From the sequence record PV390659.2: 64,000 nucleotides of DNA. One strand, 5' to 3'. Each line of letters opens with the position of its first letter. The stretch's first letter is position 1. The position numbers and the translations under genes were made by a program. This DNA comes from Escherichia phage vB_EcoM_P8. The notes beneath the pieces are model-generated. The model ran no database searches. It worked only from the letters and a program-made list of their open reading frames with translations, and was not told where the DNA came from. Shown piece by piece: positions 2,161 to 64,000 of this stretch.

Positions 2161-3162
2161 ATGACTCGTAACGAATATATCAAATCATTCAATAGCGTTA
2201 TTGATGATAAAGTTAAACCTATGTCTAGTCAGAATAGTGTTCTTTCTATTATCAATCAATGGCTCAATAATATTGATGTAAGCATTGTTTCTTCCAGCAG
2301 ATTTATTCACGAAGTTCGTGAAATTTCTAGTCGTACAGATAAAGATGACATTAAGAAAACCTTTAAAGGGTCTCGTCTTCTTTCATACTTAGTCAACAGA
2401 GATATTCTTGGTAAATTTGGGAAAGAAATTAAACGAACTAAAGATGTAGTAGGATATAATTGGTTCGGTGATGTTAATTCTTATCATCTTAATAATAAAG
2501 AAGACCCTGAGAATATTTTTACTCGTCGTTGGATTAGTAATTTCAGGCTTTTCAAAGGACAGATTCTAAAATCAGCTTCTAAATTATGTTATGGCGATTA
2601 TCGTCAAATTCATCCTTTGGCTTCTGATATGGTTATCGTAAAAGAATATGAGCTTGATAAAAATAAAGTAGCTATTTTTGTGAATTATGGATTTTTTACA
2701 CCAAACGCTAACCAAAAGAATATTAATAAATTTTTCTCAATTGCTAGCACTATAACTTATCAATTAGAGGCGGCTTTGGGCTGTATGGAAACCGTAAAAA
2801 GTATTCATACATATCCTTTCAAAAATATGTGTGGTTGGGAAGGATATAAAATTATAATTAGCCTTCGTGAAGTGAAACGTACGTACTCACCGACTGATAA
2901 AGAAATTTACCAACAAAAATGTGATGAAATTGTGAATACTCCTAAAGAAGAAACTACCCTTGAAGAACTAATGGATAATCTTGACGATTCGCCTGAACCG
3001 ATAGAAATTCGTCCAGAAGTTATTGCACTAGAAAAAGCTTATAAAGAAGTTCTAGAAATTTCTAATAAAGCGCAGAAAGAATATGAGAAGGCTAAAAGGA
3101 TTTGGGAAGAATCTGTTAATCGCCTTGATCGTTTGGAACAAGCTTTACAGTTAATTAAGTAA
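2161..3162 (+). CDS. hypothetical protein, member C of four-paralog array, C-terminal coiled coil
   Basis: ORF track 2131..3162; ATG 2161 follows GAGGAG RBS and lies downstream of promoter; N-terminus TRNEYIKSFNSVI resembles member D TRKHYIDYFDSLI. Confidence 0.65.
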   Translation: MTRNEYIKSFNSVIDDKVKPMSSQNSVLSIINQWLNNIDVSIVSSSRFIHEVREISSRTDKDDIKKTFKGSRLLSYLVNRDILGKFGKEIKRTKDVVGYNWFGDVNSYHLNNKEDPENIFTRRWISNFRLFKGQILKSASKLCYGDYRQIHPLASDMVIVKEYELDKNKVAIFVNYGFFTPNANQKNINKFFSIASTITYQLEAALGCMETVKSIHTYPFKNMCGWEGYKIIISLREVKRTYSPTDKEIYQQKCDEIVNTPKEETTLEELMDNLDDSPEPIEIRPEVIALEKAYKEVLEISNKAQKEYEKAKRIWEESVNRLDRLEQALQLIK

Positions 3163-3214
3163 TTTAAAGCCAAGGATGGCTCGGAGCATAAATCATTAAC
3201 CAAGTGAGAAGAAC

Positions 3215-4144
3215 ATGAAAACTCGTAAACATTATATTGATTATTTTGATAGTCTTATTACTAAACATCGTAATTATCAGATAGGACACAGAGCAGTAAT
3301 CAATAATATTCTTCGTGATTTTTTAGACTATATTGGATGGGAAAACCATATTTGTAAAGATACACAAAATGCGTATTCACATTCTCTTGGTTCTTTGCTA
3401 GAGTGGTTCAAACGTTCCCGATTACTATCTTCTGTGATAGCTCGTGATAACATTAAAAACTTTATGAAGCCGAGCTTTATTAAATCTGAGACATCTATAA
3501 CTGATTTGGTTGAATTTACTATTGTTAACGATGTTAAAAAGACCCATTTGGCTGATTGGTTATCTACCATTCCTGAAACTAAATTTGCTGATAAATTTGC
3601 TTGTCAATTCAATGACCAAGTGAATATGCTTTTTAAGCATGCTCGCAGACTATTTACCGCAGGCGATGACCGTACAAATACAGTTCATGTTAAGGATTGG
3701 GTTATTGCTGATGAAGTAACACACAAGCCAGGTGGTTCATCAGTATTAATTAATATCCAGGTTCCTTATTATTACTCACGTAATCTTGGCACCATGACAG
3801 CTAGAGAAATTAATAAGCACAACAAAACTATTCGTTCGTTGTCTTATAAACTCTGCACGATGGTGGAGATGATGGACGTAGTGGAAATGTATGACGAAAC
3901 CGAAGATAATGGTTCAATGTTATACAGCTCACGCATTCTAATTAAACTGAAGAATCCTAATACATATAAGCCAGTTGTAAAAGAACCTAAAGTAGAAAAG
4001 GTTGATAACCTGAGCGAAGAACGTGAATATCTCAATGCTCGTTTGATTGAAGTTGAAGCTCAGATTGCCGAACATACCAAATTGTTAAAAGCTCTTAATG
4101 CAAAAGCAAATGGTTTACGTAATGCTATTGAGGTACTGAAATGA
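3215..4144 (+). CDS. hypothetical protein, member D of four-paralog array, C-terminal coiled coil
   Basis: 309-aa ORF; shared N-terminal motif with member C; coiled-coil C-terminus. Confidence 0.65.
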   Translation: MKTRKHYIDYFDSLITKHRNYQIGHRAVINNILRDFLDYIGWENHICKDTQNAYSHSLGSLLEWFKRSRLLSSVIARDNIKNFMKPSFIKSETSITDLVEFTIVNDVKKTHLADWLSTIPETKFADKFACQFNDQVNMLFKHARRLFTAGDDRTNTVHVKDWVIADEVTHKPGGSSVLINIQVPYYYSRNLGTMTAREINKHNKTIRSLSYKLCTMVEMMDVVEMYDETEDNGSMLYSSRILIKLKNPNTYKPVVKEPKVEKVDNLSEEREYLNARLIEVEAQIAEHTKLLKALNAKANGLRNAIEVLK

Positions 4145-4458
4145 AAAAGCGCTTATTAGAAGATATTGCAGCTTCAAGTAATTCCAGTCTAATTAAAATT
4201 ATTATGGCTGGTGAAGAAGACGATCTAGAAATGCGTGGAAAGATTCATGGCGATGATGATCTAGACTTTAAACCTCCTGCTTGGGATGCCATTATGGTTA
4301 TGGTTGAACGCCGCGAAAGGGCTTCTAAGAATGTTCCGAACTGCCCAAAATGTGGTACTGAACAGGTTCAATTAATTCATTGGCAGACTAGTAATCTTCG
4401 TTATAAATGTCGTCATTGCAAACACCGATTTAACCGAGAAGAAAATGACCAAGCGTAA
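4141..4458 (+). CDS. small zinc-ribbon protein
   Basis: 105-aa ORF, ATGA stop-start overlap; C-terminal CPKCG..17..CRHC motif. Confidence 0.55.
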
Positions 4459-4687
4459 AGAATATATGGAGATTGCTGAAAAGGCAGTCCGTGAATTAGC
4501 AATAGCGTATTATAATGAACACGGTAAATTTCCTGATAGATACAGCGTGCTTAAATCAGCTTTAACTCGTTCATATAAAAATATGCTATCAGAAGTAAGT
4601 GATATTATATACAAACATAAAGAACAAACAGGTCAAAGTCTTGATTACGACGAGACTTTTAAACAAGTACTAGGAATTAAGGAATAA
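4445..4687 (+). CDS. hypothetical protein
   Basis: 80-aa ORF tightly packed upstream of nrdC. Confidence 0.5.
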
Positions 4688-4688
4688 T

Positions 4689-4952
4689 ATGTTTAAAGTA
4701 TATGGTTATGATAGCAACATCCACAAATGTGTGTATTGCGATAATGCAAAACGTCTTTTGACTGTGAAGAAACAGCCGTTTGAATTTATCAACATTATGC
4801 CGGAAAAAGGTGTTTTTGATGATGAGAAAATTGCTGAGCTTCTGACGAAACTAGGTCGTGATACTCAAATTGGCTTGACGATGCCTCAGGTATTTGCTCC
4901 TGATGGAAGTCATATTGGTGGATTTGACCAATTGCGGGAATACTTTAAATGA
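4689..4952 (+). CDS. nrdC: phage thioredoxin/glutaredoxin NrdC
   Basis: 87 aa, CVYC redox motif, sequence matches remembered T4 NrdC. Confidence 0.9.
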   Translation: MFKVYGYDSNIHKCVYCDNAKRLLTVKKQPFEFINIMPEKGVFDDEKIAELLTKLGRDTQIGLTMPQVFAPDGSHIGGFDQLREYFK

Positions 4953-5164
4953 TGCTCGAAGGAACTGATTATATCCATGACTACCGCGGAAGCGCGGTAT
5001 ATGTGGGTGATGAGGTTGCAGTTTATTATGGTTATGGAACTTTGATGACAGCAAAGGTTATTCAAATTAAAAATGGCCGCGCTAAACTCGAAGTTTATTA
5101 TTCTAATGGTGAAAAGTCTATTTCTAAATGGAAATACGGCGATTGTATCGTCAAATTGGGGTAA
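4949..5164 (+). CDS. hypothetical protein
   Basis: 71-aa ORF, ATGA overlap with nrdC stop. Confidence 0.5.
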   Translation: MMLEGTDYIHDYRGSAVYVGDEVAVYYGYGTLMTAKVIQIKNGRAKLEVYYSNGEKSISKWKYGDCIVKLG

Positions 5165-5166
5165 AT

Positions 5167-5337
5167 ATGATTTACGATATTAGTGTATCAAGAACTCCGT
5201 CAATGGTTACTATTCCAGCTGAAGAATTAGATCGTCTTCAGAAAATTGAAGAGCTTCTTTGGGAAATTGAATCTGATTTGCCATCAGGATTAGAATCCTG
5301 GATTGATTATGAAGAACTTAATAAGCTTCGGGGTTAA
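5167..5337 (+). CDS. hypothetical small protein
   Basis: ATG at 5167 just after previous stop; track gives longer overlapping alternative 5128..5337. Confidence 0.4.
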   Translation: MIYDISVSRTPSMVTIPAEELDRLQKIEELLWEIESDLPSGLESWIDYEELNKLRG

Positions 5338-5459: not shown

Positions 5460-5906
5460 ATGATTACAGTAGATAAGTGGTTTAGAATTAATCGTGCTGA
5501 TAAGGGGCTGTGTAATTACTGGCCGGAACTTAGTGCAGGTACTGTCTTTAAAGTTCGTGAACTTGCAAAAGAATGTGAAGATGATATAGAACCTGATACT
5601 AGAATTATTGAAATTGAACTTTCTGATGGAAAGATTATTAACATCTATGATAAGCCAATTACGTATTGGTGCTTGTGGAATACTGAATCAGTAGAAAATG
5701 GCGAAATTGAAGAAGTTGTAGAACGAGTTGATCAAGCTATTCATAAACCTAAAGCAGCTTTTCAAGGTGAACGCATTTCATATGCATTAGCTAAATTAGC
5801 TGCACAAGAAAATAACGATGGCTATGAAGGAAATTTGATGCAAGCTGCAGCAGAATATATTGAATGGCTTGAAACTCAAATTTCTTTTTCTGACCGAGCA
5901 TTTTAA
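5460..5906 (+). CDS. hypothetical protein, possibly Pin (protease inhibitor) by position and size
   Basis: ORF track 5442..5906; first ATG at 5460 after GGAG; sits between nrdC and gene 49 as pin does in T4; sequence not recognised. Confidence 0.4.
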   Translation: MITVDKWFRINRADKGLCNYWPELSAGTVFKVRELAKECEDDIEPDTRIIEIELSDGKIINIYDKPITYWCLWNTESVENGEIEEVVERVDQAIHKPKAAFQGERISYALAKLAAQENNDGYEGNLMQAAAEYIEWLETQISFSDRAF

Positions 5907-44309: not shown

Positions 44310-44406
44310 AGTTTAAAATTTTTTCATAAAACTATATACATCAGTAGTTGATTATGGTACTATATCAATATCAACTACTGATACAGAAAATAACTTGGAG
44401 AATAAA

Positions 44407-44676
44407 ATGGAAAACTTAATTATCATCGAACAATCTTTCAACGATTATGGTATGGCTTATGGTTATCGTGCGATAATGGAAGATTCTCGTGGATGTGTTA
44501 TCGATATTGCTGAATGTAAAGATTTACTGCAGCTTTTGAAGATTGTTCGCAAAAATTGGGATTGTGAAAACATTAAAGTTCGTGTTGTAACGGAAGAAGA
44601 AACTGTTTTTCATGATGTAAAATTTGCCAAAGGTGCTGCTACTCTTCTGAAACGCATCACTCCAATGTTCAATTAA
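44407..44676 (+). CDS. hypothetical protein
   Basis: ORF track 44395..44676; ATG 44407. Confidence 0.45.
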   Translation: MENLIIIEQSFNDYGMAYGYRAIMEDSRGCVIDIAECKDLLQLLKIVRKNWDCENIKVRVVTEEETVFHDVKFAKGAATLLKRITPMFN

Positions 44677-45332: not shown

Positions 45333-45509
45333 ATGCCAATGTATGATTATAAATGCCAATCCGAAGATTGCGGGCATGAATATGAAAAAATTAAAAAGAT
45401 TTCTGAACGAGAAAATGATGTTTGCCCTAAATGTCATCGTTTGTCTACTCGTCGGCCTTCTGCTCCTAAGCATGTGAATGGTGGATTTTACGACTTACTT
45501 AAAGGGTAA
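45333..45509 (+). CDS. small zinc-ribbon protein (58 aa)
   Basis: CxxC..17..CPKC motif. Confidence 0.4.
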   Translation: MPMYDYKCQSEDCGHEYEKIKKISERENDVCPKCHRLSTRRPSAPKHVNGGFYDLLKG

Positions 45510-45511
45510 TT

Positions 45512-45883
45512 ATGTTTAAAATCGGTAAGAAATATCGTGTTCGCGAAGGCAAAGAAAAGAAATATCTACTTTCTTCTATTTATAGGAATAGTTCTATTAA
45601 TACTGTAATATCTACAAGCGAATTTATCGTTGAAGATATGAAAGGTCATAATGTTACAATGATTAGTACAGCATCTGGAAATGATGGAAAAATTCTTCAT
45701 AGTTTTCAGAGTAATGTTCTAATTTATGATGAAGAATTTGACTTCTTCGAAGAAGTTACAGAAGATTTTGATTTTGAATGCACTATCACTATGAAATCTG
45801 GCGACCCTCTTTCTTTTACAGTTAAAGATGAAAGAAGTCGCTTGAGAATTATTAGTCTTCTTCAAGCCATTAAATTTGAGTGA
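45512..45883 (+). CDS. hypothetical protein
   Basis: 123-aa ORF. Confidence 0.5.
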   Translation: MFKIGKKYRVREGKEKKYLLSSIYRNSSINTVISTSEFIVEDMKGHNVTMISTASGNDGKILHSFQSNVLIYDEEFDFFEEVTEDFDFECTITMKSGDPLSFTVKDERSRLRIISLLQAIKFE

Positions 45884-45887
45884 AATT

Positions 45888-46148
45888 ATGAAATATGTTA
45901 ATCGTTCTATCGCGGCATTAGTATTAGCAGTATCTTTAGTAGGATGTACTGATGCTGATAATGCAACCAAAGTTTTGTCTTCAAGTGGGTTTACTAATAT
46001 TGAAATCACTGGATACAATTGGTTTGGTTGCTCTGAAAATGATTTCCAACACACTGGATTTCGTGCTATTGGACCTACTGGGCAGAAAGTAGAAGGAACC
46101 GTGTGTTCTGGTCTATTCTTCAAGGATTCGACTATCCGTTTTAAATAA
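45888..46148 (+). CDS. predicted lipoprotein (lipobox LVGC)
   Basis: ORF track 45876..46148; ATG 45888; MKYVNRSIAALVLAVSLVGC. Confidence 0.5.
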   Translation: MKYVNRSIAALVLAVSLVGCTDADNATKVLSSSGFTNIEITGYNWFGCSENDFQHTGFRAIGPTGQKVEGTVCSGLFFKDSTIRFK

Positions 46149-46165
46149 AAGGCCTTCGGGCCTTT
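46148..46165 (+). terminator. terminator hairpin AAAGGCC-UUCG-GGCCUUU
   Basis: perfect stem, UUCG loop. Confidence 0.65.
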
Positions 46166-46190
46166 AGCTTTATGATTACCGGAGTATAAT
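46166..46190 (+). promoter_or_regulatory. possible middle promoter for gene 39
   Basis: agcttta 46166-46172, 12 bp spacer, tataat 46185-46190. Confidence 0.4.
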
Positions 46191-46217
46191 ATTCCCAAAA
46201 CCAAACGAGGATAAGTG

Positions 46218-48035
46218 ATGATTAAGAATGAAATTAAAATTCTGAGCGATATTGAACATATCAAAAAGCGTAGCGGCATGTACATTGGTTCTTCTGCTAA
46301 TGAAATGCATGAGCGCTTTCTGTTTGGTAAATGGGAAAGTGTTCAGTATGTACCTGGTCTTGTTAAGCTTATTGATGAAATTATCGATAACTCGGTAGAT
46401 GAAGGTATTCGTACTAAGTTTAAATTCGCAAATAAAATTAATGTTACTATCAAAAACAATCAAGTAACAGTTGAAGATAACGGTCGTGGTATTCCACAGG
46501 CGATGGTTAAAACACCTACTGGTGAAGAAATTCCTGGTCCAGTTGCTGCATGGACTATTCCAAAAGCAGGTGGTAACTTTGGTGATGATAAAGAACGCGT
46601 CACTGGCGGTATGAACGGTGTTGGTTCTAGTTTAACTAACATTTTTTCTGTGATGTTTGTCGGTGAAACTGGCGACGGTCAAAATAATATTGTGGTTCGT
46701 TGTTCAAATGGCATGGAAAATAAATCATGGGAAACTATTCCTGGAAAATGGAAAGGAACTCGCGTTACTTTCATTCCTGATTTTATGTCATTTGAAACTA
46801 ATGAGCTATCTCAAGTTTATCTTGACATTACACTAGATCGTCTCCAGACACTTGCAGTAGTTTATCCTGATATTCAATTTACCTTTAATGGTAAAAAGGT
46901 TCAGGGTAATTTTAAGAAATATGCACGCCAATATGATGAACATGCTATCGTTCAAGAACAAGAAAACTGTTCTATTGCGGTTGGTCGTTCACCCGATGGT
47001 TTTCGTCAATTAACATACGTCAATAACATTCATACTAAGAATGGTGGCCATCACATTGACTGTGTTATGGATGATATTTGTGAAGACCTTATTCCACAAA
47101 TCAAACGTAAATTTAAAATTGACGTAACTAAAGCACGTGTTAAAGAATGTTTGACTATCGTTATGTTTGTTCGTGATATGAAAAACATGCGATTTGATTC
47201 TCAAACTAAAGAGCGTCTGACTTCTCCATTTGGTGAAATCCGTAGTCATATTCAGCTTGATGCTAAAAAGATTTCACGTGCTATTTTAAATAATGAAGCA
47301 ATTTTAATGCCAATCATTGAAGCTGCCTTGGCTCGTAAATTGGCGGCAGAAAAAGCAGCAGAAACTAAAGCAGCTAAAAAGGCTTCTAAAGCTAAGGTTC
47401 ATAAACATATTAAAGCGAATCTTTGTGGTAAAGATGCTGACACTACTCTTTTCTTGACTGAGGGTGATTCCGCTATCGGATATCTTATTGATGTTCGTGA
47501 TAAAGAACTTCATGGTGGTTATCCATTACGTGGTAAAGTTCTCAACAGTTGGGGTATGTCATATGCTGATATGCTTAAAAACAAAGAACTGTTTGATATT
47601 TGCGCAATCACTGGATTAGTTCTTGGTGAAAAAGCCGAAAACTTGAATTATCATAATATTGCTATTATGACTGACGCTGACCACGATGGTCTAGGAAGCA
47701 TTTATCCTTCTCTGCTCGGATTTTTCAGTAATTGGCCAGAACTGTTTGAACAAGGAAGAATTCGCTTTGTCAAAACTCCTGTAATCATCGCTCAGGTCGG
47801 TAAAAAACAAGAATGGTTTTATACAGTCGCTGAATATGAGAGTGCTAAAGATGCTCTACCTAAACATAGCATCCGTTATATTAAGGGACTTGGCTCTTTG
47901 GAAAAATCTGAATATCGTGAGATGATTCAAAACCCAGTATATGATGTTGTTAAACTTCCTGAGAACTGGAAAGAGCTTTTTGAAATGCTTATGGGAGATA
48001 ATGCTGATCTTCGTAAAGAATGGATGAGCCAGTAG
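46218..48035 (+). CDS. 39: topoisomerase II large subunit gp39 (GyrB-like ATPase), unsplit
   Basis: 605-aa continuous ORF; no separate gene 60 or bypass element downstream. Confidence 0.9.
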   Translation: MIKNEIKILSDIEHIKKRSGMYIGSSANEMHERFLFGKWESVQYVPGLVKLIDEIIDNSVDEGIRTKFKFANKINVTIKNNQVTVEDNGRGIPQAMVKTPTGEEIPGPVAAWTIPKAGGNFGDDKERVTGGMNGVGSSLTNIFSVMFVGETGDGQNNIVVRCSNGMENKSWETIPGKWKGTRVTFIPDFMSFETNELSQVYLDITLDRLQTLAVVYPDIQFTFNGKKVQGNFKKYARQYDEHAIVQEQENCSIAVGRSPDGFRQLTYVNNIHTKNGGHHIDCVMDDICEDLIPQIKRKFKIDVTKARVKECLTIVMFVRDMKNMRFDSQTKERLTSPFGEIRSHIQLDAKKISRAILNNEAILMPIIEAALARKLAAEKAAETKAAKKASKAKVHKHIKANLCGKDADTTLFLTEGDSAIGYLIDVRDKELHGGYPLRGKVLNSWGMSYADMLKNKELFDICAITGLVLGEKAENLNYHNIAIMTDADHDGLGSIYPSLLGFFSNWPELFEQGRIRFVKTPVIIAQVGKKQEWFYTVAEYESAKDALPKHSIRYIKGLGSLEKSEYREMIQNPVYDVVKLPENWKELFEMLMGDNADLRKEWMSQ

Positions 48036-48064
48036 TTTACTTTACCACAAGGATGTGGTATAAT
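48035..48064 (+). promoter_or_regulatory. T4-type early promoter
   Basis: gtttac 48035-48040, tataat 48059-48064; identical 30 bp to 2103-2132. Confidence 0.6.
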
Positions 48065-48089
48065 TAATTGGGCAAATGAGGACATTGAA

Positions 48090-48293
48090 ATGAAATCATA
48101 CAGAGTAAATTTAGAACTTTTTGATAAAGCAGTTCATCGAGAATATAGAATCATTCAACGCTTTTTCGATATGGGAGAAGCCGAAGAGTTTAAAAACCGC
48201 TTTAAGGATATTAGAGATAAAATTCAATCCGACACCGCAACTAAAGATGAACTACTAGAAGTTGCTGAAGTTATTAAACGCAATATGAATTAA
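48090..48293 (+). CDS. hypothetical protein
   Basis: 67-aa ORF upstream of rIIA. Confidence 0.5.
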
Positions 48294-48303
48294 TGAGGAA
48301 ATT

Positions 48304-50481
48304 ATGATTATCACCACTGAAAAAGAAACAATTCTTGGCAATGGTTCTAAATCAAAAGCATTTAGCATCACAGCATCTCCTAAAGTATTTAAAATTCTGT
48401 CATCTGATTTGTATACAAACAAGATTCGCGCAGTAGTCCGTGAATTGATTACCAACATGATTGATGCCCATGCTCTTAATGGAAATCCTGAAAAATTTAT
48501 CATTCAAGTTCCAGGACGATTAGATCCGCGATTTGTTTGCCGAGATTTTGGTCCAGGTATGAGCGATTTTGATATTCAGGGTGATGATAATTCTCCTGGG
48601 TTGTATAATTCATACTTTAGTTCATCTAAGGCTGAATCTAATGATTTCATTGGTGGATTTGGTTTAGGTTCTAAATCTCCGTTTAGTTATACTGATACAT
48701 TTAGTATTACTTCATATCATAAAGGTGAAATTCGTGGTTATGTAGCTTACATGGATGGTGACGGTCCGCAGATTAAACCTACATTCGTAAAAGAAATGGG
48801 TCCAGACGATAAAACTGGCATTGAAATCGTAGTTCCGGTTGAAGAAAAAGACTTTAGAAACTTTGCTTATGAAGTTTCTTATATCATGCGACCATTCAAA
48901 GATTTGGCTATTATTAATGGTCTTGACCGCGAAATTGATTATTTTCCGGATTTTGATGACTATTACGGTGTAAATCCAGAAAGATACTGGCCAGATCGTG
49001 GTGGATTGTACGCTATCTATGGTGGTATTGTTTATCCTATTGATGGTGTTATTAGAGACCGTAACTGGTTAAGCATTCGCAATGAAGTGAATTATATTAA
49101 GTTTCCAATGGGTTCACTTGATATTGCTCCATCGCGTGAGGCTCTTTCGCTGGATGATCGTACTCGTAAAAATATTATTGAGCGTGTTAAAGAGCTCAGT
49201 GAGCAGGCATTTAATGAAGATGTAAAACGATTTAAAGAATCTACATCTCCTCGTCATACATACCGTGAATTGATGAAGATGGGGTATTCTGCTCGAGATT
49301 ATATGATTAGTAATTCAGTCAAATTTACGACTAAAAATCTGTCATATAAAAAGATGCAGAGCATGTTTGAACCTGACAGTAAGTTATGCAATGCAGGGGT
49401 TGTGTATGAAGTAAATCTTGACCCTCGACTGAAACGCATTAAGCAAAGTCATGAAACTTCAGCCGTTGCATCAAGCTATCGTCTGTTTGGTATTAATACG
49501 ACAAAAATTAATATTGTTATTGATAATACTAAAAATCGTGTTAATATTGTCCGTGGATTAGCACGCGCGTTAGATGATAGTGAATTTAATAACGCATTAA
49601 ATATTCATCACAATGAGCGGCTTCTGTTTATTAATCCAGAAGTAGAATCGCAGATTGATTTGCTTCCTGATATTATGGCAATGTTTGAAAGTGATGAAGT
49701 TAACATTCATTATTTGTCAGAAATCGAAGCTTTAGTTAAAAGTTATATTCCAAAGGCAGTAAAAAGTACAGCTCCTCGTCCTAAAACTGCTACTGCATTT
49801 AAGTTTGAAATTAAAGACGGGCGCTGGGAAAAAGAGGAATTGTTTACACTTACGTCAGAAGCAGATGAAATTACTGGTTATGTAGCATACATGCATCGTT
49901 CTGATATTTTCTCTATGGATGGTACTACATCGCTTTGTCATCCATCTACGAATATTTTGATTCGTATGGCTAATCTTATTGGCATTAATGAATTTTATGT
50001 TATTCGTCCACTTTTACAGAAAAAGGTAAAAGAACTTGGTCAGTGTCAATGTATTTTTGAAACTTTGCGTGATTTATATGTAGATGCTTTTGATGATGTA
50101 GATTATGATAAGTATGTAGGTTATTCAAGTTCAGCTAAACGATATATTGATAAAATTATCAAGTATCCTGAGTTAGATTTTATGATGAAGTACTTCAGTG
50201 TAGATGAAGTTTCCGAAGAATATACACGACTCGCTAATATGGTTAGTTCATTACAGGGTGTATATTTCAACGGTGGAAAAGATACCATCGGTCATGACAT
50301 CTGGACGGTAACTAATCTTTTTGATGTATTATCAAATAATGCTTCAAAAAACAGTGATAAAATGGTTGCTGAGTTTACCAAGAAATTCCGTATTGTTTCC
50401 GACTTCATCGGTTATCGCAATTCTTTAAGTGATGATGAAGTTTCCCAAATCGCTAAAACTATGAAGGCCCTTGCGGCCTAA
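48304..50481 (+). CDS. rIIA: rIIA membrane-associated protein
   Basis: 725 aa, GHKL-like N-terminal motifs, position and length as T4 rIIA. Confidence 0.9.
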
Positions 50482-50492
50482 TAAGGAAAATT

Positions 50493-51431
50493 ATGTACAA
50501 TATTAAATGCCTGACCAAAAACGAACAAGCTGAAATTGTTAAATTGTATTCAAGTGGTAATTATACCCAACAGGAATTGGCTGATTGGCAAGGTGTATCG
50601 GTTGACACAATCCGTCGTGTTTTGAAAAATGCTGAAGAAGCTGAGCGCTCCAAAGTTACCATTAGCGGTGACATTACAGTTACAGTTAAGAGCGATGCAG
50701 CTATTGCTCCAGTTGCTAAATCTGACATTATTTGGAATGCATCTAAAAAATTCATTTCAATTACTGTTGACGGTGTAACTTATAACGCAACTCCTAATAC
50801 TCATTCAAACTTCCAAGAAATTCTTAATCTGCTTGTTGCAGATAAATTGGAAGAAGCAGCGCAAAAAATTAACGTTCGTCGCGCTGTTGAAAAATATATT
50901 TCCGGTGATGTTCGAATTGAAGGTGGAAGCTTGTTCTATCAAAATATTGAATTGCGATCTGGTTTAGTTGATCGTATTCTTGATTCGATGGAAAAAGGCG
51001 AAAACTTTGAATTTTATTTTCCGTTCTTGGAAAATCTGCTGGAAAACCCAAGCCAAAAAGCAGTATCTCGACTCTTTGATTTTTTGGTAGCAAACGATAT
51101 TGAAATTACAGAAGACGGTTACTTCTATGCTTGGAAAGTAGTTCGCAGTAATTACTTTGACTGTCATTCAAATACTTTTGATAACAGTCCTGGCGAAGTA
51201 GTTAAAATGCCACGTACTCGTGTGAATGACGATGATACACAAACTTGTTCTCGTGGTCTGCATGTGTGTTCTAAATCTTATATTCGTCACTTTGGCAGTT
51301 CAACCAGCCGAGTTGTAAAAGTTAAAGTACATCCTCGCGATGTAGTATCAATTCCGATTGATTACAACGATGCTAAAATGCGTACCTGCCAATACGAAGT
51401 AGTTGAAGACGTTACTGAACAATTTAAATAA
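50493..51431 (+). CDS. rIIB: rIIB protein
   Basis: 312 aa, follows rIIA. Confidence 0.9.
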   Translation: MYNIKCLTKNEQAEIVKLYSSGNYTQQELADWQGVSVDTIRRVLKNAEEAERSKVTISGDITVTVKSDAAIAPVAKSDIIWNASKKFISITVDGVTYNATPNTHSNFQEILNLLVADKLEEAAQKINVRRAVEKYISGDVRIEGGSLFYQNIELRSGLVDRILDSMEKGENFEFYFPFLENLLENPSQKAVSRLFDFLVANDIEITEDGYFYAWKVVRSNYFDCHSNTFDNSPGEVVKMPRTRVNDDDTQTCSRGLHVCSKSYIRHFGSSTSRVVKVKVHPRDVVSIPIDYNDAKMRTCQYEVVEDVTEQFK

Positions 51432-54640: not shown

Positions 54641-55969
54641 ATGCAACTGAATAATCGCGATTTAAAAAGTATCATTGATAATGAAGCATTGGCTTATGCT
54701 ATGTACACGGTTGAAAATCGTGCTATTCCAAATATGATTGATGGATTTAAGCCAGTTCAACGGTTTGTTATTGCTCGAGCCCTTGATTTAGCACGAGGAA
54801 ATAAAGATAAGTTTCACAAACTTGCTTCTATTGCAGGTGGTGTAGCTGACCTCGGATATCATCATGGTGAAAACTCTGCACAAGATGCGGGGGCTTTGAT
54901 GGCTAACACTTGGAATAATAACTTTCCTTTGTTAGATGGTCAAGGAAACTTTGGTTCTCGTACCGTTCAAAAAGCAGCGGCAAGTCGTTATATTTTTGCT
55001 CGTGTAAGTAAAAATTTCTATAGCGTATATAAAGATACTGAATATGCTCCGGTACATCAAGATAAAGAACACATTCCGCCTGCTTTCTATTTGCCTATTA
55101 TTCCTACTGTTCTTCTTAATGGTGTTTCCGGTATTGCAACTGGTTATGCAACTTACATTCTTCCTCATAGTGTTTCTTCTGTCAAGAAAGCTGTACTACA
55201 AGCTCTTCAAGGAAAGAAAGTAACTAAACCGAAGGTAGAATTCCCAGAATTTCGTGGTGAAGTCGTTGAAATTGACGGTCAATATGAAATTCGTGGAACG
55301 TACAAGTTTACTTCACGAACTCAAATGCATATCACTGAGATTCCGTATAAGTATGATCGTGAAACTTATGTGAGTAAAATCTTAGACCCGCTTGAAGATA
55401 AAGGCTTCATTACGTGGGATGATGCTTGTGGTGAGCATGGTTTTGGCTTTAAAATTAAATTCCGCAAAGAATACTCTTTGAGCAATAACGAAGAAGAACG
55501 CCATGCAAAAATTATGAAAGACTTTGGGTTGATTGAGCGTCGTTCCCAAAATATTACAGTCATCAACGAGAAAGGAAAGCTACAAGTTTACGATAACGTA
55601 GTTGATTTAATCAAAGACTTCGTTGAAGTTCGTAAAACTTATGTCCAAAAACGAATTGATAACAAAATCAAAGAAACTGAATCAGCATTTCGTTTAGCCT
55701 TTGCCAAGGCACATTTCATTAAGAAAGTAATTTCAGGTGAAATTGTTGTGCAAGGTAAAACTCGCAAAGAACTGACCGAAGAACTTTCTAAAATTGATAT
55801 GTATTCTTCTTATGTTGATAAACTAGTTGGAATGAATATTTTTCATATGACTTCCGACGAAGCAAAGAAACTTGCTGAAGAAGCTAAAGCTAAAAAAGAA
55901 GAAAACGAATATTGGAAAACTACTGATGTAGTTACAGAATACACCAAAGATTTAGAGGAAATCAAATGA
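54641..55969 (+). CDS. 52: topoisomerase II medium subunit gp52 (GyrA-like)
   Basis: 442 aa, length and GyrA-like N-terminus. Confidence 0.9.
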   Translation: MQLNNRDLKSIIDNEALAYAMYTVENRAIPNMIDGFKPVQRFVIARALDLARGNKDKFHKLASIAGGVADLGYHHGENSAQDAGALMANTWNNNFPLLDGQGNFGSRTVQKAAASRYIFARVSKNFYSVYKDTEYAPVHQDKEHIPPAFYLPIIPTVLLNGVSGIATGYATYILPHSVSSVKKAVLQALQGKKVTKPKVEFPEFRGEVVEIDGQYEIRGTYKFTSRTQMHITEIPYKYDRETYVSKILDPLEDKGFITWDDACGEHGFGFKIKFRKEYSLSNNEEERHAKIMKDFGLIERRSQNITVINEKGKLQVYDNVVDLIKDFVEVRKTYVQKRIDNKIKETESAFRLAFAKAHFIKKVISGEIVVQGKTRKELTEELSKIDMYSSYVDKLVGMNIFHMTSDEAKKLAEEAKAKKEENEYWKTTDVVTEYTKDLEEIK

Positions 55970-57971: not shown

Positions 57972-58173
57972 TTCAAAATCCGATTATTTTAACTCTCTCA
58001 ATGATAAAGATAAAAATCTAATACGGCATTTTATTGTTGAGATGGGATATACTGACACACGTGATTTAAGAGAACATATATTTGAATGTGGTGTAGCTAA
58101 AAAGTTTTCATTCACATGCAAATGTTTAAGAGAGGTAATTCAGCACTATGAACAATTTAGTCGCAAAACATAA
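57955..58173 (+). CDS. hypothetical protein
   Basis: 72-aa ORF. Confidence 0.4.
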   Translation: MAREINSKSDYFNSLNDKDKNLIRHFIVEMGYTDTRDLREHIFECGVAKKFSFTCKCLREVIQHYEQFSRKT

Positions 58174-58256
58174 TTTTAATAAAGCTTCTGTCCATAAAGA
58201 TAAGAAGAAAGCGTTTAAAGAATCTAATCGCAAACAGAAACATAAGGGGAAGGTCT

Positions 58257-58535
58257 ATGATTATTGATTCTCAATCTGTGGTTCAATATACAATCAAAAT
58301 TGATATTCTAGAAAAGCTATATAAGCTTCTACCAAATTTATACCACTCAATTGTTAATGAATTAGTTGAAGAATTACATCTCGAGAATAATGATTTCTTG
58401 GTTGGAACTTATAAAGACCTCTCAAAAGCAGGATATTTTTACGTAATTCCAGCTCCAGGAAAAAGTATTGATGATGTATTAAAAACTATAATGATTTATG
58501 TCCATGATTACGAAATTGAAGATTATTTTGAATGA
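58257..58535 (+). CDS. arn: Arn, anti-restriction (McrBC inhibitor) protein
   Basis: 92 aa, acidic, position before asiA. Confidence 0.65.
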   Translation: MIIDSQSVVQYTIKIDILEKLYKLLPNLYHSIVNELVEELHLENNDFLVGTYKDLSKAGYFYVIPAPGKSIDDVLKTIMIYVHDYEIEDYFE

Positions 58536-58696
58536 GTCATAATCTTGAAATGGTAATCGAGCATAATGTAGCTCAGGAACGTAAGTCGTTCAAGGAATTC
58601 GTAGAAAAAATTTTTGAAGAAAATAACACAGACCAGTTTACAAATCAAGTGTCTGATGATATTATAATAAAGTCAACTAATTGAGTGGTATAGTTA

Positions 58697-58969
58697 ATGA
58701 ATAAAAACATTGATACAGTTCGTGAAATTATTACTGTTGCGTCTATTTTGATTAAATTTTCCAGAGAAGATATTGTTGAGAATCGTGCTAATTTTATCGC
58801 ATTTCTGAATGAGATTGGAGTAACGCATGAAGGTAGAAAGTTAAATCAGAATTCATTCCGTAAAATTGTTTCTGAATTAACCCAAGAAGATAAGAAAACC
58901 CTCATCGACGAATTCAACGAGGGTTTTGAGGGTGTATATCGATATCTAGAGATGTATACGAACAAATAA
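58697..58969 (+). CDS. asiA: anti-sigma70 factor AsiA
   Basis: 90 aa, matches remembered T4 AsiA. Confidence 0.9.
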   Translation: MNKNIDTVREIITVASILIKFSREDIVENRANFIAFLNEIGVTHEGRKLNQNSFRKIVSELTQEDKKTLIDEFNEGFEGVYRYLEMYTNK

Positions 58970-59626
58970 TTATTTAGCCCTTCCTAATATTCTGGCCGCC
59001 TGAGAACATATTGATTCAAGGCGGTCATTACTTATATGATCATTTCTATACCAGTACATGGTTATTGTTCCAGCATAGATATTATCCAAGTTAAAATATG
59101 GACAACTGTACATGTAATTTATTTCGGGAGTAGGCTTTTTAGTTGGTAAAAAAGCAAATTTTGAGTTGGAATAATAATGACGTCCATTTAAATGAACTGC
59201 ATATTCATCCATAGTTTTATCAACAGGATATCCTCCAAGTGATTTTTCGCTTATTGTTGAAGGTAATTTTCCTTCATATGCTATAATATCAACAAAATAG
59301 TTTAAGTTTTTAGGGCGGAAAGAATACACCGCACTAAAGTCTGCCTCAGATGATATGTGAACTATCTGGAGTTGTTCCAGGGCGACAGATTCAAAGCGTG
59401 CATTTCTTTCCTTTTCAATAATTTCACTGTATGTTTCATACTTTGATTGCTTATAGTACTCAAAGAAACTATCTCCCCTATACCAAACAATCGCCATTAT
59501 AAACAAAAGAATTACGACAGCTACCCGGGAAGCAAGAACTTTCCCGGTAGCGTTATCTTTGAACAAGCGATCTAGAACACCCAACAGAATATCAGAGGGC
59601 GAAAATGATATTCTAGGTGCTGCCAT
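58970..59626 (-). CDS. t: holin T
   Basis: 218 aa, single N-terminal TM, matches remembered T4 holin. Confidence 0.9.
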   Translation of the reverse strand: MAAPRISFSPSDILLGVLDRLFKDNATGKVLASRVAVVILLFIMAIVWYRGDSFFEYYKQSKYETYSEIIEKERNARFESVALEQLQIVHISSEADFSAVYSFRPKNLNYFVDIIAYEGKLPSTISEKSLGGYPVDKTMDEYAVHLNGRHYYSNSKFAFLPTKKPTPEINYMYSCPYFNLDNIYAGTITMYWYRNDHISNDRLESICSQAARILGRAK

Positions 59627-59656
59627 AGACCCTCCTTTTAAGGATATTTATTCAAA

Positions 59657-60433
59657 TTATACTCTTGGACCATATATTGCTCCAACGTTTTGCCACGTTG
59701 GCGTAGACCCTATGACGGCATAACCAGCAGCTCCGCCATCGTATTCATATCCTTGACCACGAATATTACATCTACCTCCTGCGGAGCCAACTTCACCACC
59801 AGACCCGCCGCTATAGATACCGTTCACAGACCCTGCGCCAGGCGCAGAAATAGTACCGGCAGTTGCTCCTGATTGCATATCAATAGATCCGCCCGGCGCG
59901 CCAAACGGACGACCGCCACCACCGCCAAATGTCAATCTCATTTGTGAAAAAGGAGAATAATATCCGCCACCGCCGCCGCCACCGCCGCCAGCAATAGCTC
60001 CGCCATTATTAATTCTTAGTCTCCCACCAATATCATTTTGAATACAATGACCTCCAGCTGAGCCAGGACTATTGCTACCGCCATTCCCGCCACGGCCATA
60101 CATCGTTACACCGTGTATATTCAGTTGAACATATTCATTTGGTGTATCTCCGTACATGAAGAATAAAGGAACATCTTTAGAATATGATACTAAATCTCCG
60201 GTGATATTAAACACTATAGGTGCACTACCTGCCTCAAAACATCTATCTCGGAACCATTGACCATTGAAGTTATGGTCTGCTCCAAGCGTGTGAATTATTT
60301 CAACAGATCGACCTATCATATTACTCATCCAAAACGGAATGCCCATTCTTAATCGTTGGGCCGCGCCACCCATCCAATTTTGTCCTGTATTAACTACTGC
60401 AGACGATCCTACCCACGGTCCTGTTACTGCCAT
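59657..60433 (-). CDS. 38: gp38 receptor-recognising tail fibre tip adhesin (T2-type, polyglycine-delimited segments)
   Basis: ORF track 59657..60445; ATG at 60433; runs [22 protein letters not shown]. Confidence 0.8.
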
Positions 60434-60444
60434 ATAAACCCCCA

Positions 60445-60460
60445 AGGGGCCGAAGCCCCT
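60445..60460 (-). other. intergenic RNA hairpin (GGGGC-UUCG-GCCCC) between genes 37 and 38
   Basis: perfect stem and UUCG loop in the 31-nt 37-38 spacer; no T run. Confidence 0.45.
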
Positions 60461-60464
60461 CTTA

Positions 60465-63400
60465 TTATTTTAACAATGATTTAACTAATGCTTTAAGTTC
60501 TTCGATTTCTGATTTAAGTTCTGCAATTTCTGCAGTATGCTCATTGATTGCAGCTGTATTTAAACCAATTACACCGTTATAGTTCAAACGAAGTAAAGCT
60601 TCACCATCAGGGTCACCTTCAACTAATTCAGGTAAAATAGCTTGAACTTCTTGAGCTATCAAACCGGCGTTAGGTTCCCATTTCTGATTTCCTTCTTCAT
60701 CTAGGCCTCGCTTCTGCATATAAGTGTAACCGTTAATTTTAGAAAGCTTCTCAGAAGCATTTTCAAATTTAACAAGGTCTTTTTTAACACGAATATCAGA
60801 ACGGACATAAACATCGCGGACAAATGTGGAATAGGCATCGCTTTGTTGGACTAAATGACCAAAAGAAATAATAGCTCTTCCTTGTTCAGTCCACAAAGCA
60901 CCAGTGGTATCCCAAAGACCTTCATGGAGATGGTAAGCGGACGACCATGAAGCAATATGCATTCCATTTGCAACCATGTTAATACGACCGTCACCGCCAT
61001 GAACTAACCCAGTGTCATTATCACCAATAACAACACATGCGCCTGTCCATGCAGGGTCACCTCCACCAGCTGATATTCTTACTCCAGCTTTAACCATGTC
61101 AGGAACGTACATGTTTCCATTATGGTGGAATTCGAAGATAGCTTGCGGATCGCTAGCATTTTCCTGGTTACCAACACGGATAATAGCCTGAGCCCATTGG
61201 TTAGTGATACGGCGCATACCGAAATCAACACCAGATACGTATCCTTCATTCGTAATAACAGATTTTCCTTTAATAATAGGATAATAGCAGTCATTGCCGA
61301 CGTAGCCAAAATCTACAAATATCGGCGCTTCTTGTCGCCATTGGTTTGCCCAATCGCCAGCTTGGTGCGCAGTCCACTGTGTACCGTTTATATGAAGGCG
61401 GTCTCTATTAAAATTAAATGTTCCTTGACCTTGAGGAGAAAGCGATATTTCGCCGTTATTTGTTATGTATACACCGCCTTGTGTAATGTAACTGTAAAAA
61501 CCTAGACCATTATCGCCGCCGCCTTTGCCTATATACCAGTTACCTGTACCACCTACATCACTACGGATGTGCGATGAAGCACCCACGCCTGCAGTTAAAA
61601 CAAGAGCATCATTGCCTGCCGATAAAGTCAATTTACCGGTCATCGTGTCGCCTTCTTTCGAAACACGAGTCGCAATAGCATCGCGAATATTTGTAGTATC
61701 ACCGGCAGAAGTAAACGGTTTCCAAATATCAGACCAGATATTACCATTTCGAGCAATAGTAGCTTCACCACCACCGACCTGAACGTTATCCGGGAAGTTA
61801 ACAGTACCGTCTTGATTAAAACGAGACGTATGGCCTTGTGATCCATCTTCTTTGATATGGTGTAAAACAAATGTACCCGAATTAATTTCAGTACCTAAAG
61901 ACCAAACCGCTTTACTGTTTAAAAACTTCTGTTTAACAATAGGATAATATTTGTTTATAGCATCATCATCATCAATTTCCTGGAAAATAGGAGCTGCTTG
62001 AACATACTGAATATCATAACCACCAGCGCCTGCACCGTGACCAGTAAATTTAATATAGCCGTTTGCTGCGAACGTATTGTAACTTGATTGTAAATCTGGA
62101 ATAGTAACTTTACCAGTATCTAAAGCCATACTAAACGGGCGAAGTGGACCGATATCGCCATGTTTACCTTCACCGTAAGCAGTTGGAATAATATGAAGAC
62201 TGCCTTCTGAACGTCTAAAAATGGCTCCATAATCTGCATTCCAAATGCGAAGCGCATTCACTGCTCCAGATGAAATTTCGCCTGTTGTGTGAACTCCTCT
62301 ATTTCCAGCAGTAACACCGGATGATTCAAATGAACCATTGACGTTCATTTCTACTTCACCGGTAGTAAGTCTTTGAATATAACTCATCCAGCTAGTTGCG
62401 TCAGAAATTTCCATGACATTTTTACGATTACCTACACTAGGATTAGTAAACGTATTACCCCATACAGAAATTGTCATATTATCAACTGAACTGCTACCAG
62501 TTGTGTTACCTCTAAACATCAGCGTAGAAGCATTATTACGACCATCAATATTAACAGAACCACCAATAACGTCAATATTACCGGGAGTAACTAACAAACC
62601 GCCGTGAGTATTAATGTTTGTAGTACCTTTACCACGGAAATAGTGATGATAATTACCACCTTGATAATAACCTAAAAGAGTCTGACCGTCGCCATACGCG
62701 TTATTATCATGATAAGTAACAACAGTGGCTAATGCATAGTTTTCTGTCGGTGGCGTTGTCATAAGAATCCCATCCGGAGAATAACCCATAACCATTTTTC
62801 TAAGGCTTTGTGTTTCCGCAGGACCGTAAATGAAAGTTCTTGTTCCGTTGTTTACTGTATGAAAATATCCGTCCTGATGCCATTTAAATCCGGTATCATT
62901 ATCACCAAGAGCAATTGAAGCAGTCCCTAATTCAGAATATCCTTTAGAGCCGCCCGGAAGACCTATAGAAATAGAATGGCCTGCTTTCAATCCACCGGAC
63001 CAGGTAAACGACCAAAGATAGGCATCTAACCCGTCACCGGCGTACCAGGTTATCCCGTCGTTATCTTTAACTTCATGGAATATACCAGATCCTACGGCAT
63101 TTCGCATAACACGGAGGTGGTTAATAGCCGTTTCGCTTTCTGCCAACGGAGTGTTATTTGCTAATGAATAGATATCATAATCGCCTGTCTTCTTCCCATT
63201 TGTAATAACTTTATCGGTCAGAATTTGTGGAGACGAAATAGATTTCCATGCTGATACTTCAGGTGAAGTAAATAGGCCACTGCCTGAAAATGCATAGGTG
63301 CTTTCATCACCAGCGGCGTAGTCTTGAACGCGGATATTAACTACTTGCGTAGTTAATCCATCATTAGCCGGGGCATAAATGATTCCACGTTCGCGGCTAT

Positions 63401-63779
63401 TGCCATCGAAAAAACGAACATGCGATGTACCTGAACTTTTTGTAATAAGTTCTCCACCCTCAGTCATAATCTGCCCGGCGGCAATAATATCGCGAGTTAC
63501 TCGAGCAATACCAGTTAAATTGAAATCACCGGTTTGAGTGAAGGTACCATTTAAAGTATAATCACCAGTTTGATTATAGTTTCCTATATGAATAACATTC
63601 CCGTCAATGCTACCGCCTTTAGCAAAACCAAGATCAATGATATTTCCTTGGTCATCTTTAGTAAAAAGTACGCGGTCTTTTAAGTTTATAGCCAATTCAC
63701 CTTCGGCTAATACTGAAGCGGCAGGACGTGCTCCTGCAGTTTTGCTTCTTTTAAATTGTATTTGTTTTAAAGTAGCCAT
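60465..63779 (-). CDS. 37: long tail fibre distal subunit gp37
   Basis: 1104 aa; N-terminus [13 protein letters not shown] as T4 gp37; C-terminal coiled-coil segment unlike T4. Confidence 0.9.
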
Positions 63780-63787
63780 AAGTCCTC

Positions 63788-64000
63788 TTAATAATAGCCG
63801 AAATCTTGAACAGAATCCTTAATAACAATTTGATCAAATCGTGGAACATGTGAGGGTTGAGATGCAGGATTCTGTGAAAAAAGGTTTGGCGCAGTTAAAT
63901 TTCCTGTCATAGTATCTCCAGAGCGTAATACCCTAGAGTTTGCGTTTGCTGTAACAATATTTATTGCTCCATCAACATAATCTTTCCGTGTAAGGTCATA
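63788..64000 (-). CDS. 36: tail fibre protein gp36, 3' part (partial at window edge)
   Basis: 70 codons open to window end on - strand, stop TAA at 63790-63788. Confidence 0.55.
   Translation of the reverse strand, partial: YDLTRKDYVDGAINIVTANANSRVLRSGDTMTGNLTAPNLFSQNPASQPSHVPRFDQIVIKDSVQDFGYY

Follow-up and report, generated by a model that had tools for sequence, protein, structure and literature searches.

We estimate at about 96% the probability that gene 39 of Escherichia phage vB_EcoM_P8 encodes an intact large (GyrB/ParE-like) topoisomerase subunit from which the MobA element is simply absent, the gene standing in the parental, uninvaded arrangement also seen in T2 and T6. We found no evidence against this parental-gene explanation. 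In textbooks the unsplit gene serves as the contrast to the split genes 39 and 60 of T4 with their bypass, and it is known from comparisons of T2 and T4 made in the 1980s and 1990s. The state is ordinary and already known, having been described, assayed and solved structurally, and nothing about it is new. Its significance goes little past correct annotation: the gene should carry the label gp39 ('60plus39').

The analysis covers a 64,000-nt stretch of record PV390659.2 (hereafter, the window). The features discussed are collected in Table 1.

Table 1. Positions of the features discussed, in window coordinates
Feature	Position	Strand	Evidence or remark
Beta-glucosyl-HMC-alpha-glucosyltransferase, 280 aa	26125–26967	+	phrog_842, E = 4e-88
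Shine-Dalgarno sequence GAGGA	46205–46209	+	6 nt 5' of ATG 46218; read from the sequence
Gene 39, unsplit ('60plus39'): large subunit of phage type IIA DNA topoisomerase, 605 aa	46218–48035	+	ORF, Pfam, identity to T2/T6 gp39
Codons 1–473, part homologous to T4 gene 39	46218–47636	+	blastp 98.3%; T4 MobA element starts right past codon 473
64-nt parental segment: last base of codon 473 to codon 494, including Toprim DxDxDG	47636–47699	+	blastn, junction reading
Codons 495–605 and stop, homologous to T4 gene 60 past the bypass	47700–48035	+	blastn 97.5%
Promoter-like site: (G)TTTACT, 17-nt spacer, TG-extended TATAAT	48036–48064	+	Best consensus match, 10/12 plus TG; starts at the first base past the gene 39 stop
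rIIA.1, 67 aa, the 'rIIA-proximal ORF'	48090–48293	+	PF24210 T4_RIIA1, E = 2.2e-33; same position as T4 rIIA.1; preceded by GAGGA
rIIA	48304–50481	+	After rIIA.1; followed by rIIB
Gene 52, 442 aa, GyrA/ParC-like partner subunit with DNA-cleavage tyrosine	54641–55969	+	PF00521 DNA_topoisoIV, E = 5.9e-77; RY dipeptide at residues 116–117
gp38-type tail-fibre adhesin, 259 aa	59669–60445	-	phrog_2056, E = 1e-108
gp37 tail fibre, 1104 aa	60465–63779	-

Reading frame, domains and downstream signals of gene 39

In the ORF listing of the window, gene 39 is one continuous frame that opens with ATG 46218 and closes with a TAG codon at 48033–48035, in agreement with the first-pass annotation, which had described an unsplit gene of 605 codons at this position. 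We regard this ATG as the better, and a credible, start, because GAGGA lies 6 nt 5' of it, the annotated T4, T2 and T6 proteins begin MIKNEIK, and the solved T6 protein begins there too. In T4, the stretch that holds the gene 39 Shine-Dalgarno sequence matches that of vB_EcoM_P8 save for one base further upstream. The listing also contains a longer version of the frame (46215–48035, plus strand, 606 aa) with a GTG start; this GTG was rejected, being merely 3 nt from the Shine-Dalgarno sequence and at odds with all homologues.

Three Pfam models match gp39 above their cut-offs. More specifically, HATPase_c (PF02518; E = 1.9e-9, 38.4 bits against a cut-off of 26.4) marks an N-terminal GHKL ATPase domain, DNA_gyraseB (PF00204; E = 1.5e-13, 51.1 bits against 27) marks the transducer, and TOPRIM_C (PF16898) is matched as well. 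Residues 1–380 align to the crystal structure of the T6 ATPase domain (9IMJ). The Toprim model PF01751 gave no match to gp39 at E ≤ 0.001. Read directly, the Toprim E...DxD signature is intact in a single frame, with E415 in TEGDSA and D486, D488 and D490 in TDADHDG, so that the Toprim domain is uninterrupted; R438, K440 and K556 are also in place. The roles of these residues are assigned from work on the T6 enzyme (PMC11461880). A frame of this kind does not arise by chance, because its Pfam matches exceed the gathering scores and it matches solved phage topoisomerases at E = 0.

The NCBIfam equivalog models for GyrB and ParE (TIGR01059, TIGR01055 and TIGR01058) gave gp39 best scores of 218–234 bits, below their cut-offs of 723–900 (234 against 740). 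Judged by its sequence, gp39 is best classed as a phage-lineage type IIA B subunit, homologous to bacterial GyrB and ParE and without equivalog status. Its cognate A subunit is encoded in the same genome by gene 52, the counterpart of which is labelled 'DNA topoisomerase' in the record of Escherichia phage vB_EcoM_BMB16 (PV102577.1). In T2 and T6 the enzyme consists of gp39 and gp52, and this two-subunit form is active in relaxation assays; a three-subunit type IIA topoisomerase is found in T4 alone (PMC11461880). The T6 subunits assemble into a domain-swapped A2B2 complex that relaxes supercoiled DNA in an ATP-dependent manner and is inhibited by m-AMSA (PMC11461880). By analogy, vB_EcoM_P8 gp39 and gp52 would be expected to assemble as A2B2 and, during phage replication, to carry out ATP-dependent relaxation and decatenation of DNA.

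Gene 39 had also been described as directly followed by a promoter and the ORF proximal to rIIA, and this order is what we observe: the spacer between gene 39 and rIIA.1 is 54 nt long, and the promoter-like site sits exactly within it. T4, T2 and T6 share this spacer; the single base that differs lies between the Shine-Dalgarno sequence and the ATG, outside the hexamers. Because the spacer is conserved, the same promoter-like element stands 3' of gene 60 in T4. A consensus scan of the region returned nine promoter-like matches where 9.1 were expected, that is, no enrichment. The case for a promoter consequently rests not on statistics but on how well the site matches, on its placement exactly between the two genes and on the fact that T4, T2 and T6 conserve it; on these grounds the site is probably a working promoter, which would drive rIIA.1 and rIIA.

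Two labels in the BMB16 record appear to be annotation slips. The rIIA.1 frame carries the label 'rIIA lysis inhibitor', and a 312-aa ORF in the rIIB position right past rIIA (50493–51431) is labelled 'hypothetical protein'.

Comparison with the split genes of T4 and search for the MobA cassette

Gene 39 of vB_EcoM_P8 was compared with T4 (NC_000866; gene 39 at 3778–5328, gene 60 at 2458–2990, annotated bypass at 2803–2852). By blastp, residues 1–473 of gp39 are 98.3% identical to residues 1–473 of T4 gp39, and residues 472–605 align without gaps to residues 27–160 of T4 gp60 at 95.5% identity, so that the single frame corresponds to these parts of the two T4 proteins joined together. The C-terminal part of gp39 is thus related to gp60, as had been assumed when the gene was first read; only its extent changes, from the roughly 100 residues given then to the last 134.

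At the DNA level (blastn), the alignment falls into three blocks. The first runs from 46000 to 47635 (T4 5546–3911, 95.5%) and the third from 47700 to 48293 (T4 2793–2200, 97.5%). Between them, positions 47644–47689 match T4 2899–2854 at just 80.4%, compared with 95–97% in the flanks. The breakpoints relative to T4 are therefore at 47635/47636 and 47699/47700, with the 80.4% segment, termed HomR in T4, in between. Reading the junction directly, identity with T4 ends past codon 473 (GGT GAA AAA GC|). The point at which the bypass is inserted in T4 corresponds to 47690/47691, past the Gly491 codon (47688–47690), and the nine bases past the landing site differ, being CTAGGAAGC in vB_EcoM_P8 and TTAGGTTCT in T4.

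These breakpoints agree with the anatomy published for the MobA element (Manning and Atkins, bioRxiv 10.1101/2022.08.31.505936). In that account, which cites Bonocora et al. (2011), a homing-endonuclease element of about 1.1 kb with a bypass cassette invades an intact Topo2L gene; it inserts at amino acids 466–473 with its 3' end at D490/G491, 64 nt of parental sequence are deleted, and HomR shows 67–81% DNA identity to the parental sequence, with 9 extra HomR nucleotides in clade 1 (10.1101/2022.08.31.505936). HomR is homologous to the 64-nt segment, and holds the site of MobA nicking in T2 (10.1101/2022.08.31.505936).

Set against vB_EcoM_P8, T4 differs in each of these respects. In T4 the 64-nt segment has given way to a diverged copy brought in by the cassette (HomR) together with a 50-nt coding gap, and about 1.0 kb of additional DNA (the mobA pseudogene and 60.1) has no counterpart in vB_EcoM_P8. 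Likewise, the 43-aa C-terminal extension of T4 gp39 and the unique N-terminal 26–30 aa of T4 gp60 have no counterpart in vB_EcoM_P8 gp39. Under the proposed mechanism, a MobA element of about 1.1 kb would have inserted within the Toprim coding region in T4 and a minority of its relatives; the insertion would have cut the gene into 39 and 60, each gaining a short terminal extension, swapped 64 nt for the element's diverged copy, and added the 50-nt gap that ribosomes bypass.

To look for any part of this element, the T4 C-terminal extension (43 aa), N-terminal extension (30 aa), gp60.1, mobA fragment, bypass and 1.1-kb cassette DNA were searched against the whole 64 kb with tblastn and with blastn at word size 7. 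Besides the 80% HomR match, the T4 cassette parts gave only chance-level matches across the window (best E = 0.06, over 12 aa). Neither a mobA or 60.1 homing-endonuclease ORF nor a remnant of one was detected inside gene 39 by these searches. The element-derived C-terminal extension of gp39 and N-terminal extension of gp60 likewise had no significant match in the 64 kb, and the protein has exactly the length of its T2 and T6 counterparts. At the position of the T4 bypass, the 50-nt coding gap with its GGA take-off codon, UAG and matched GGA landing codon is absent, and GAT GGT CTA GGA AGC is read in frame at 47685–47699. Because the search returned only HomR and chance matches, there is no recognisable 'hit-and-run' scar in the window.

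Direction of change and competing histories

To count the unsplit state among relatives, a 261-nt query spanning the junction was matched to 498 closely related phage records, and the junction is contiguous in 454 of them (~91%). An alternative count of 495 records with at least 80% coverage was set aside in favour of this recount, since T4-type records may there have been joined over the 1.1-kb insert. With a 101-aa protein query spanning the junction, 1919 of 1997 phage records, drawn from many genera, are contiguous, the hosts including Escherichia, Klebsiella, Acinetobacter, Aeromonas, Vibrio, Shewanella, Agrobacterium and Prevotella. Only 43 records have the T4-type cassette, about one third of them T4 isolates; this MobA-bearing minority includes T4 proper, RB55, RB59, HY01, HY03 and others.

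The T4 split point falls within the Toprim domain, between E415 and the DxD motif (D486 and D488). Across it, one unbroken alignment links gp39 of vB_EcoM_P8 to S. pneumoniae ParE (residues 6–603), and the same holds for human TOP2A and TOP2B (10–603). From this collinearity and from the distribution of the two states, the split is therefore the derived, minority condition and the unsplit gene the parental one. The proposal that vB_EcoM_P8 shows the state before insertion is accordingly upheld: it agrees with the published model (Manning and Atkins; Bonocora 2011), with the lack of cassette remnants, with the alignments to ParE and TOP2, and with the contiguity found by protein query. The vB_EcoM_P8 lineage was probably never invaded by the MobA element.

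The alternative that survives best, although we consider it very unlikely, is secondary restoration by 'hit and run': the MobA/bypass cassette would have been present in an ancestor and later removed, either through precise deletion or through gene conversion from a co-infecting relative whose gene was unsplit, making the present gene 39 a post-insertion allele. T-even phages recombine freely, and the mosaicism beside gene 39, with indels common variously to T2 or T6, is compatible with such an exchange. Losses of the cassette have indeed been reported in clades of Aeromonas and Campylobacter phages; in these documented losses, however, the terminal-extension sequences persist (10.1101/2022.08.31.505936), and nothing like them is present in vB_EcoM_P8. 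Furthermore, in its 64-nt segment vB_EcoM_P8 has the parental sequence type of T2 and T6 and not that of HomR, and the 454 contiguous junctions against some 43 with the cassette among close relatives make a lineage that was never invaded the more parsimonious history. Because complete gene conversion leaves no trace, the two histories would look alike in sequence.

Within 47620–47720, vB_EcoM_P8 differs from T2 at three silent positions (GCC/GCT, GAC/GAT and CAC/CAT), in or adjoining the 64-nt segment that MobA replaces. We give only slight weight to the possibility that gene conversion cleanly removed a cassette once present in the lineage, or that these three differences alter susceptibility to MobA homing. 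If either were true, gene 39 would be a restored or naturally resistant allele rather than a naive MobA target.

'Gene-fusion or gene-separation' have been named as formal alternatives (PMC11461880), and under the former the three-subunit T4 arrangement of 39, 60 and 52 would be ancestral and the 605-aa gene a fusion of 39 and 60. This is already effectively refuted by the collinearity of the 605-aa protein, in one stretch across a split point inside Toprim, with ParE, GyrB and human TOP2, and by the unsplit junction in nearly all phage records matched by the protein query; moreover, the T4-specific segment encodes the remnant of a homing endonuclease, and the intervening segment is abnormally divergent in its T4 copy, which is what imported DNA would show. 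That the continuous frame is an artefact of mis-assembly, or a collapsed T4-like split locus, can be dismissed, since hundreds of genomes sequenced independently of one another (T2, T6, RB32 and RB10 among them) show this contiguous sequence, the BMB16 record matches with 3 mismatches in 50 kb, and the T6 protein of unsplit form has been expressed and solved.

Placement of the phage and comparison with known relatives

The region around gene 39 (46000–48400) is 100% identical to that of BMB16 (Straboviridae, Tequatrovirus), and the two records differ at 3 positions in the 50,000 nt from 14001 to 64000; this near-identity settles the placement of the phage. The unsplit gene had itself been offered as a help in placing it. 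This holds in so far as vB_EcoM_P8 is not among the Tequatrovirus records with the MobA cassette (~9%), but the gene is a weak marker, since about 91% of close relatives are unsplit. Better lineage markers, pointing the same way, are the gp38-type adhesin and the beta-glucosyl-HMC-alpha-glucosyltransferase, both of which we take to be features of the T2/T6 type rather than of the T4 type.

Much of the window consists of T-even early genes, running from 47 and 46 through 43, uvsX, 41, 61, dam, modA/B, dda, motB, cef and goF to 39, rIIA, rIIB, ndd, ac, 52 and motA. Beyond motA the coding strand switches, and the late genes t, 38 and 37 follow. Where the early genes of the plus strand yield to the late genes of the minus strand (holin t, gp38 and gp37), at about 58000–64000, the sign of the GC skew flips and the GC content rises from about 0.35 to 0.40–0.42.

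Several small differences from other T-even phages lie upstream of gene 39. A 123-aa ORF on the plus strand (45512–45883), between the homologues of 39.2 and 39.1, belongs to phrog_622 (unknown function), with weak similarity to goF-type PHROGs and no Pfam match. T6 has this ORF (123 aa), as does T2 (105 aa), and T4 lacks it (junction at T4 5657/5661); the difference looks like ordinary indel variation of the hyperplastic early region. The adjacent 39.2 homologue (45333–45509, plus strand) is 58 aa long and has a Zn-ribbon domain (PF09723), the T4 annotation being 45 aa (T4 5702–5839). Further upstream, about 200 nt (44415–44614) are present in T2 and absent from T4 and T6, an instance of local mosaicism beside gene 39; they lie inside a 93-aa ORF (44395–44676, plus strand) of phrog_3720 (unknown function).

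Taken together with its closest named relatives, vB_EcoM_P8 gene 39 is of a well-characterized kind. Gene 39 of T2 (AP018813) and of T6 (AP018814) is likewise 1818 nt long, at 2447–4264 in both records, between rIIA.1 and 39.1, and its DNA is 95.7% identical in T2 and 96.3% (1751/1818) in T6. Differences at the protein level are few: T2 gp39 (605 aa) is identical at 603 of 605 residues, with the two substitutions F70L and T173D and the same gene order, and T6 gp39 (605 aa) at 604 of 605. The sole change from T6 is at residue 526, which is Q in vB_EcoM_P8, H in T6 and, as in vB_EcoM_P8, Q in T2. The map position, the Toprim residues E415, D486 and D488 and the two-subunit partner gp52 are also the same in T6. 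The protein of vB_EcoM_P8 is, in the same proportion (604 of 605), identical to chain C of the cryo-EM structure of T6 topoisomerase II (PDB 8YLU), one of the set 8YLU, 8YO1, 8YO5, 8YO7, 8YOD and 8YON (Nat Commun 2024, PMC11461880).

T2, in which gp39 is unsplit as in vB_EcoM_P8, has served experimentally as a recipient for MobA homing. In Manning and Atkins (10.1101/2022.08.31.505936), citing Bonocora et al. (2011, PNAS 108:16351), MobA from related phages is described as active, copying the split-plus-bypass region into T2 in mixed infection, and the bypass, once copied, as guarding against renewed cutting by MobA. vB_EcoM_P8 is likewise a predicted potential recipient of the cassette in mixed infection. 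The same unsplit architecture recurs in RB32, ime09 and Acinetobacter phage 133, where the gene is annotated 'gp60plus39' and none is different in kind, and it is that of the 'parental Topo2L' of Manning and Atkins (2022).
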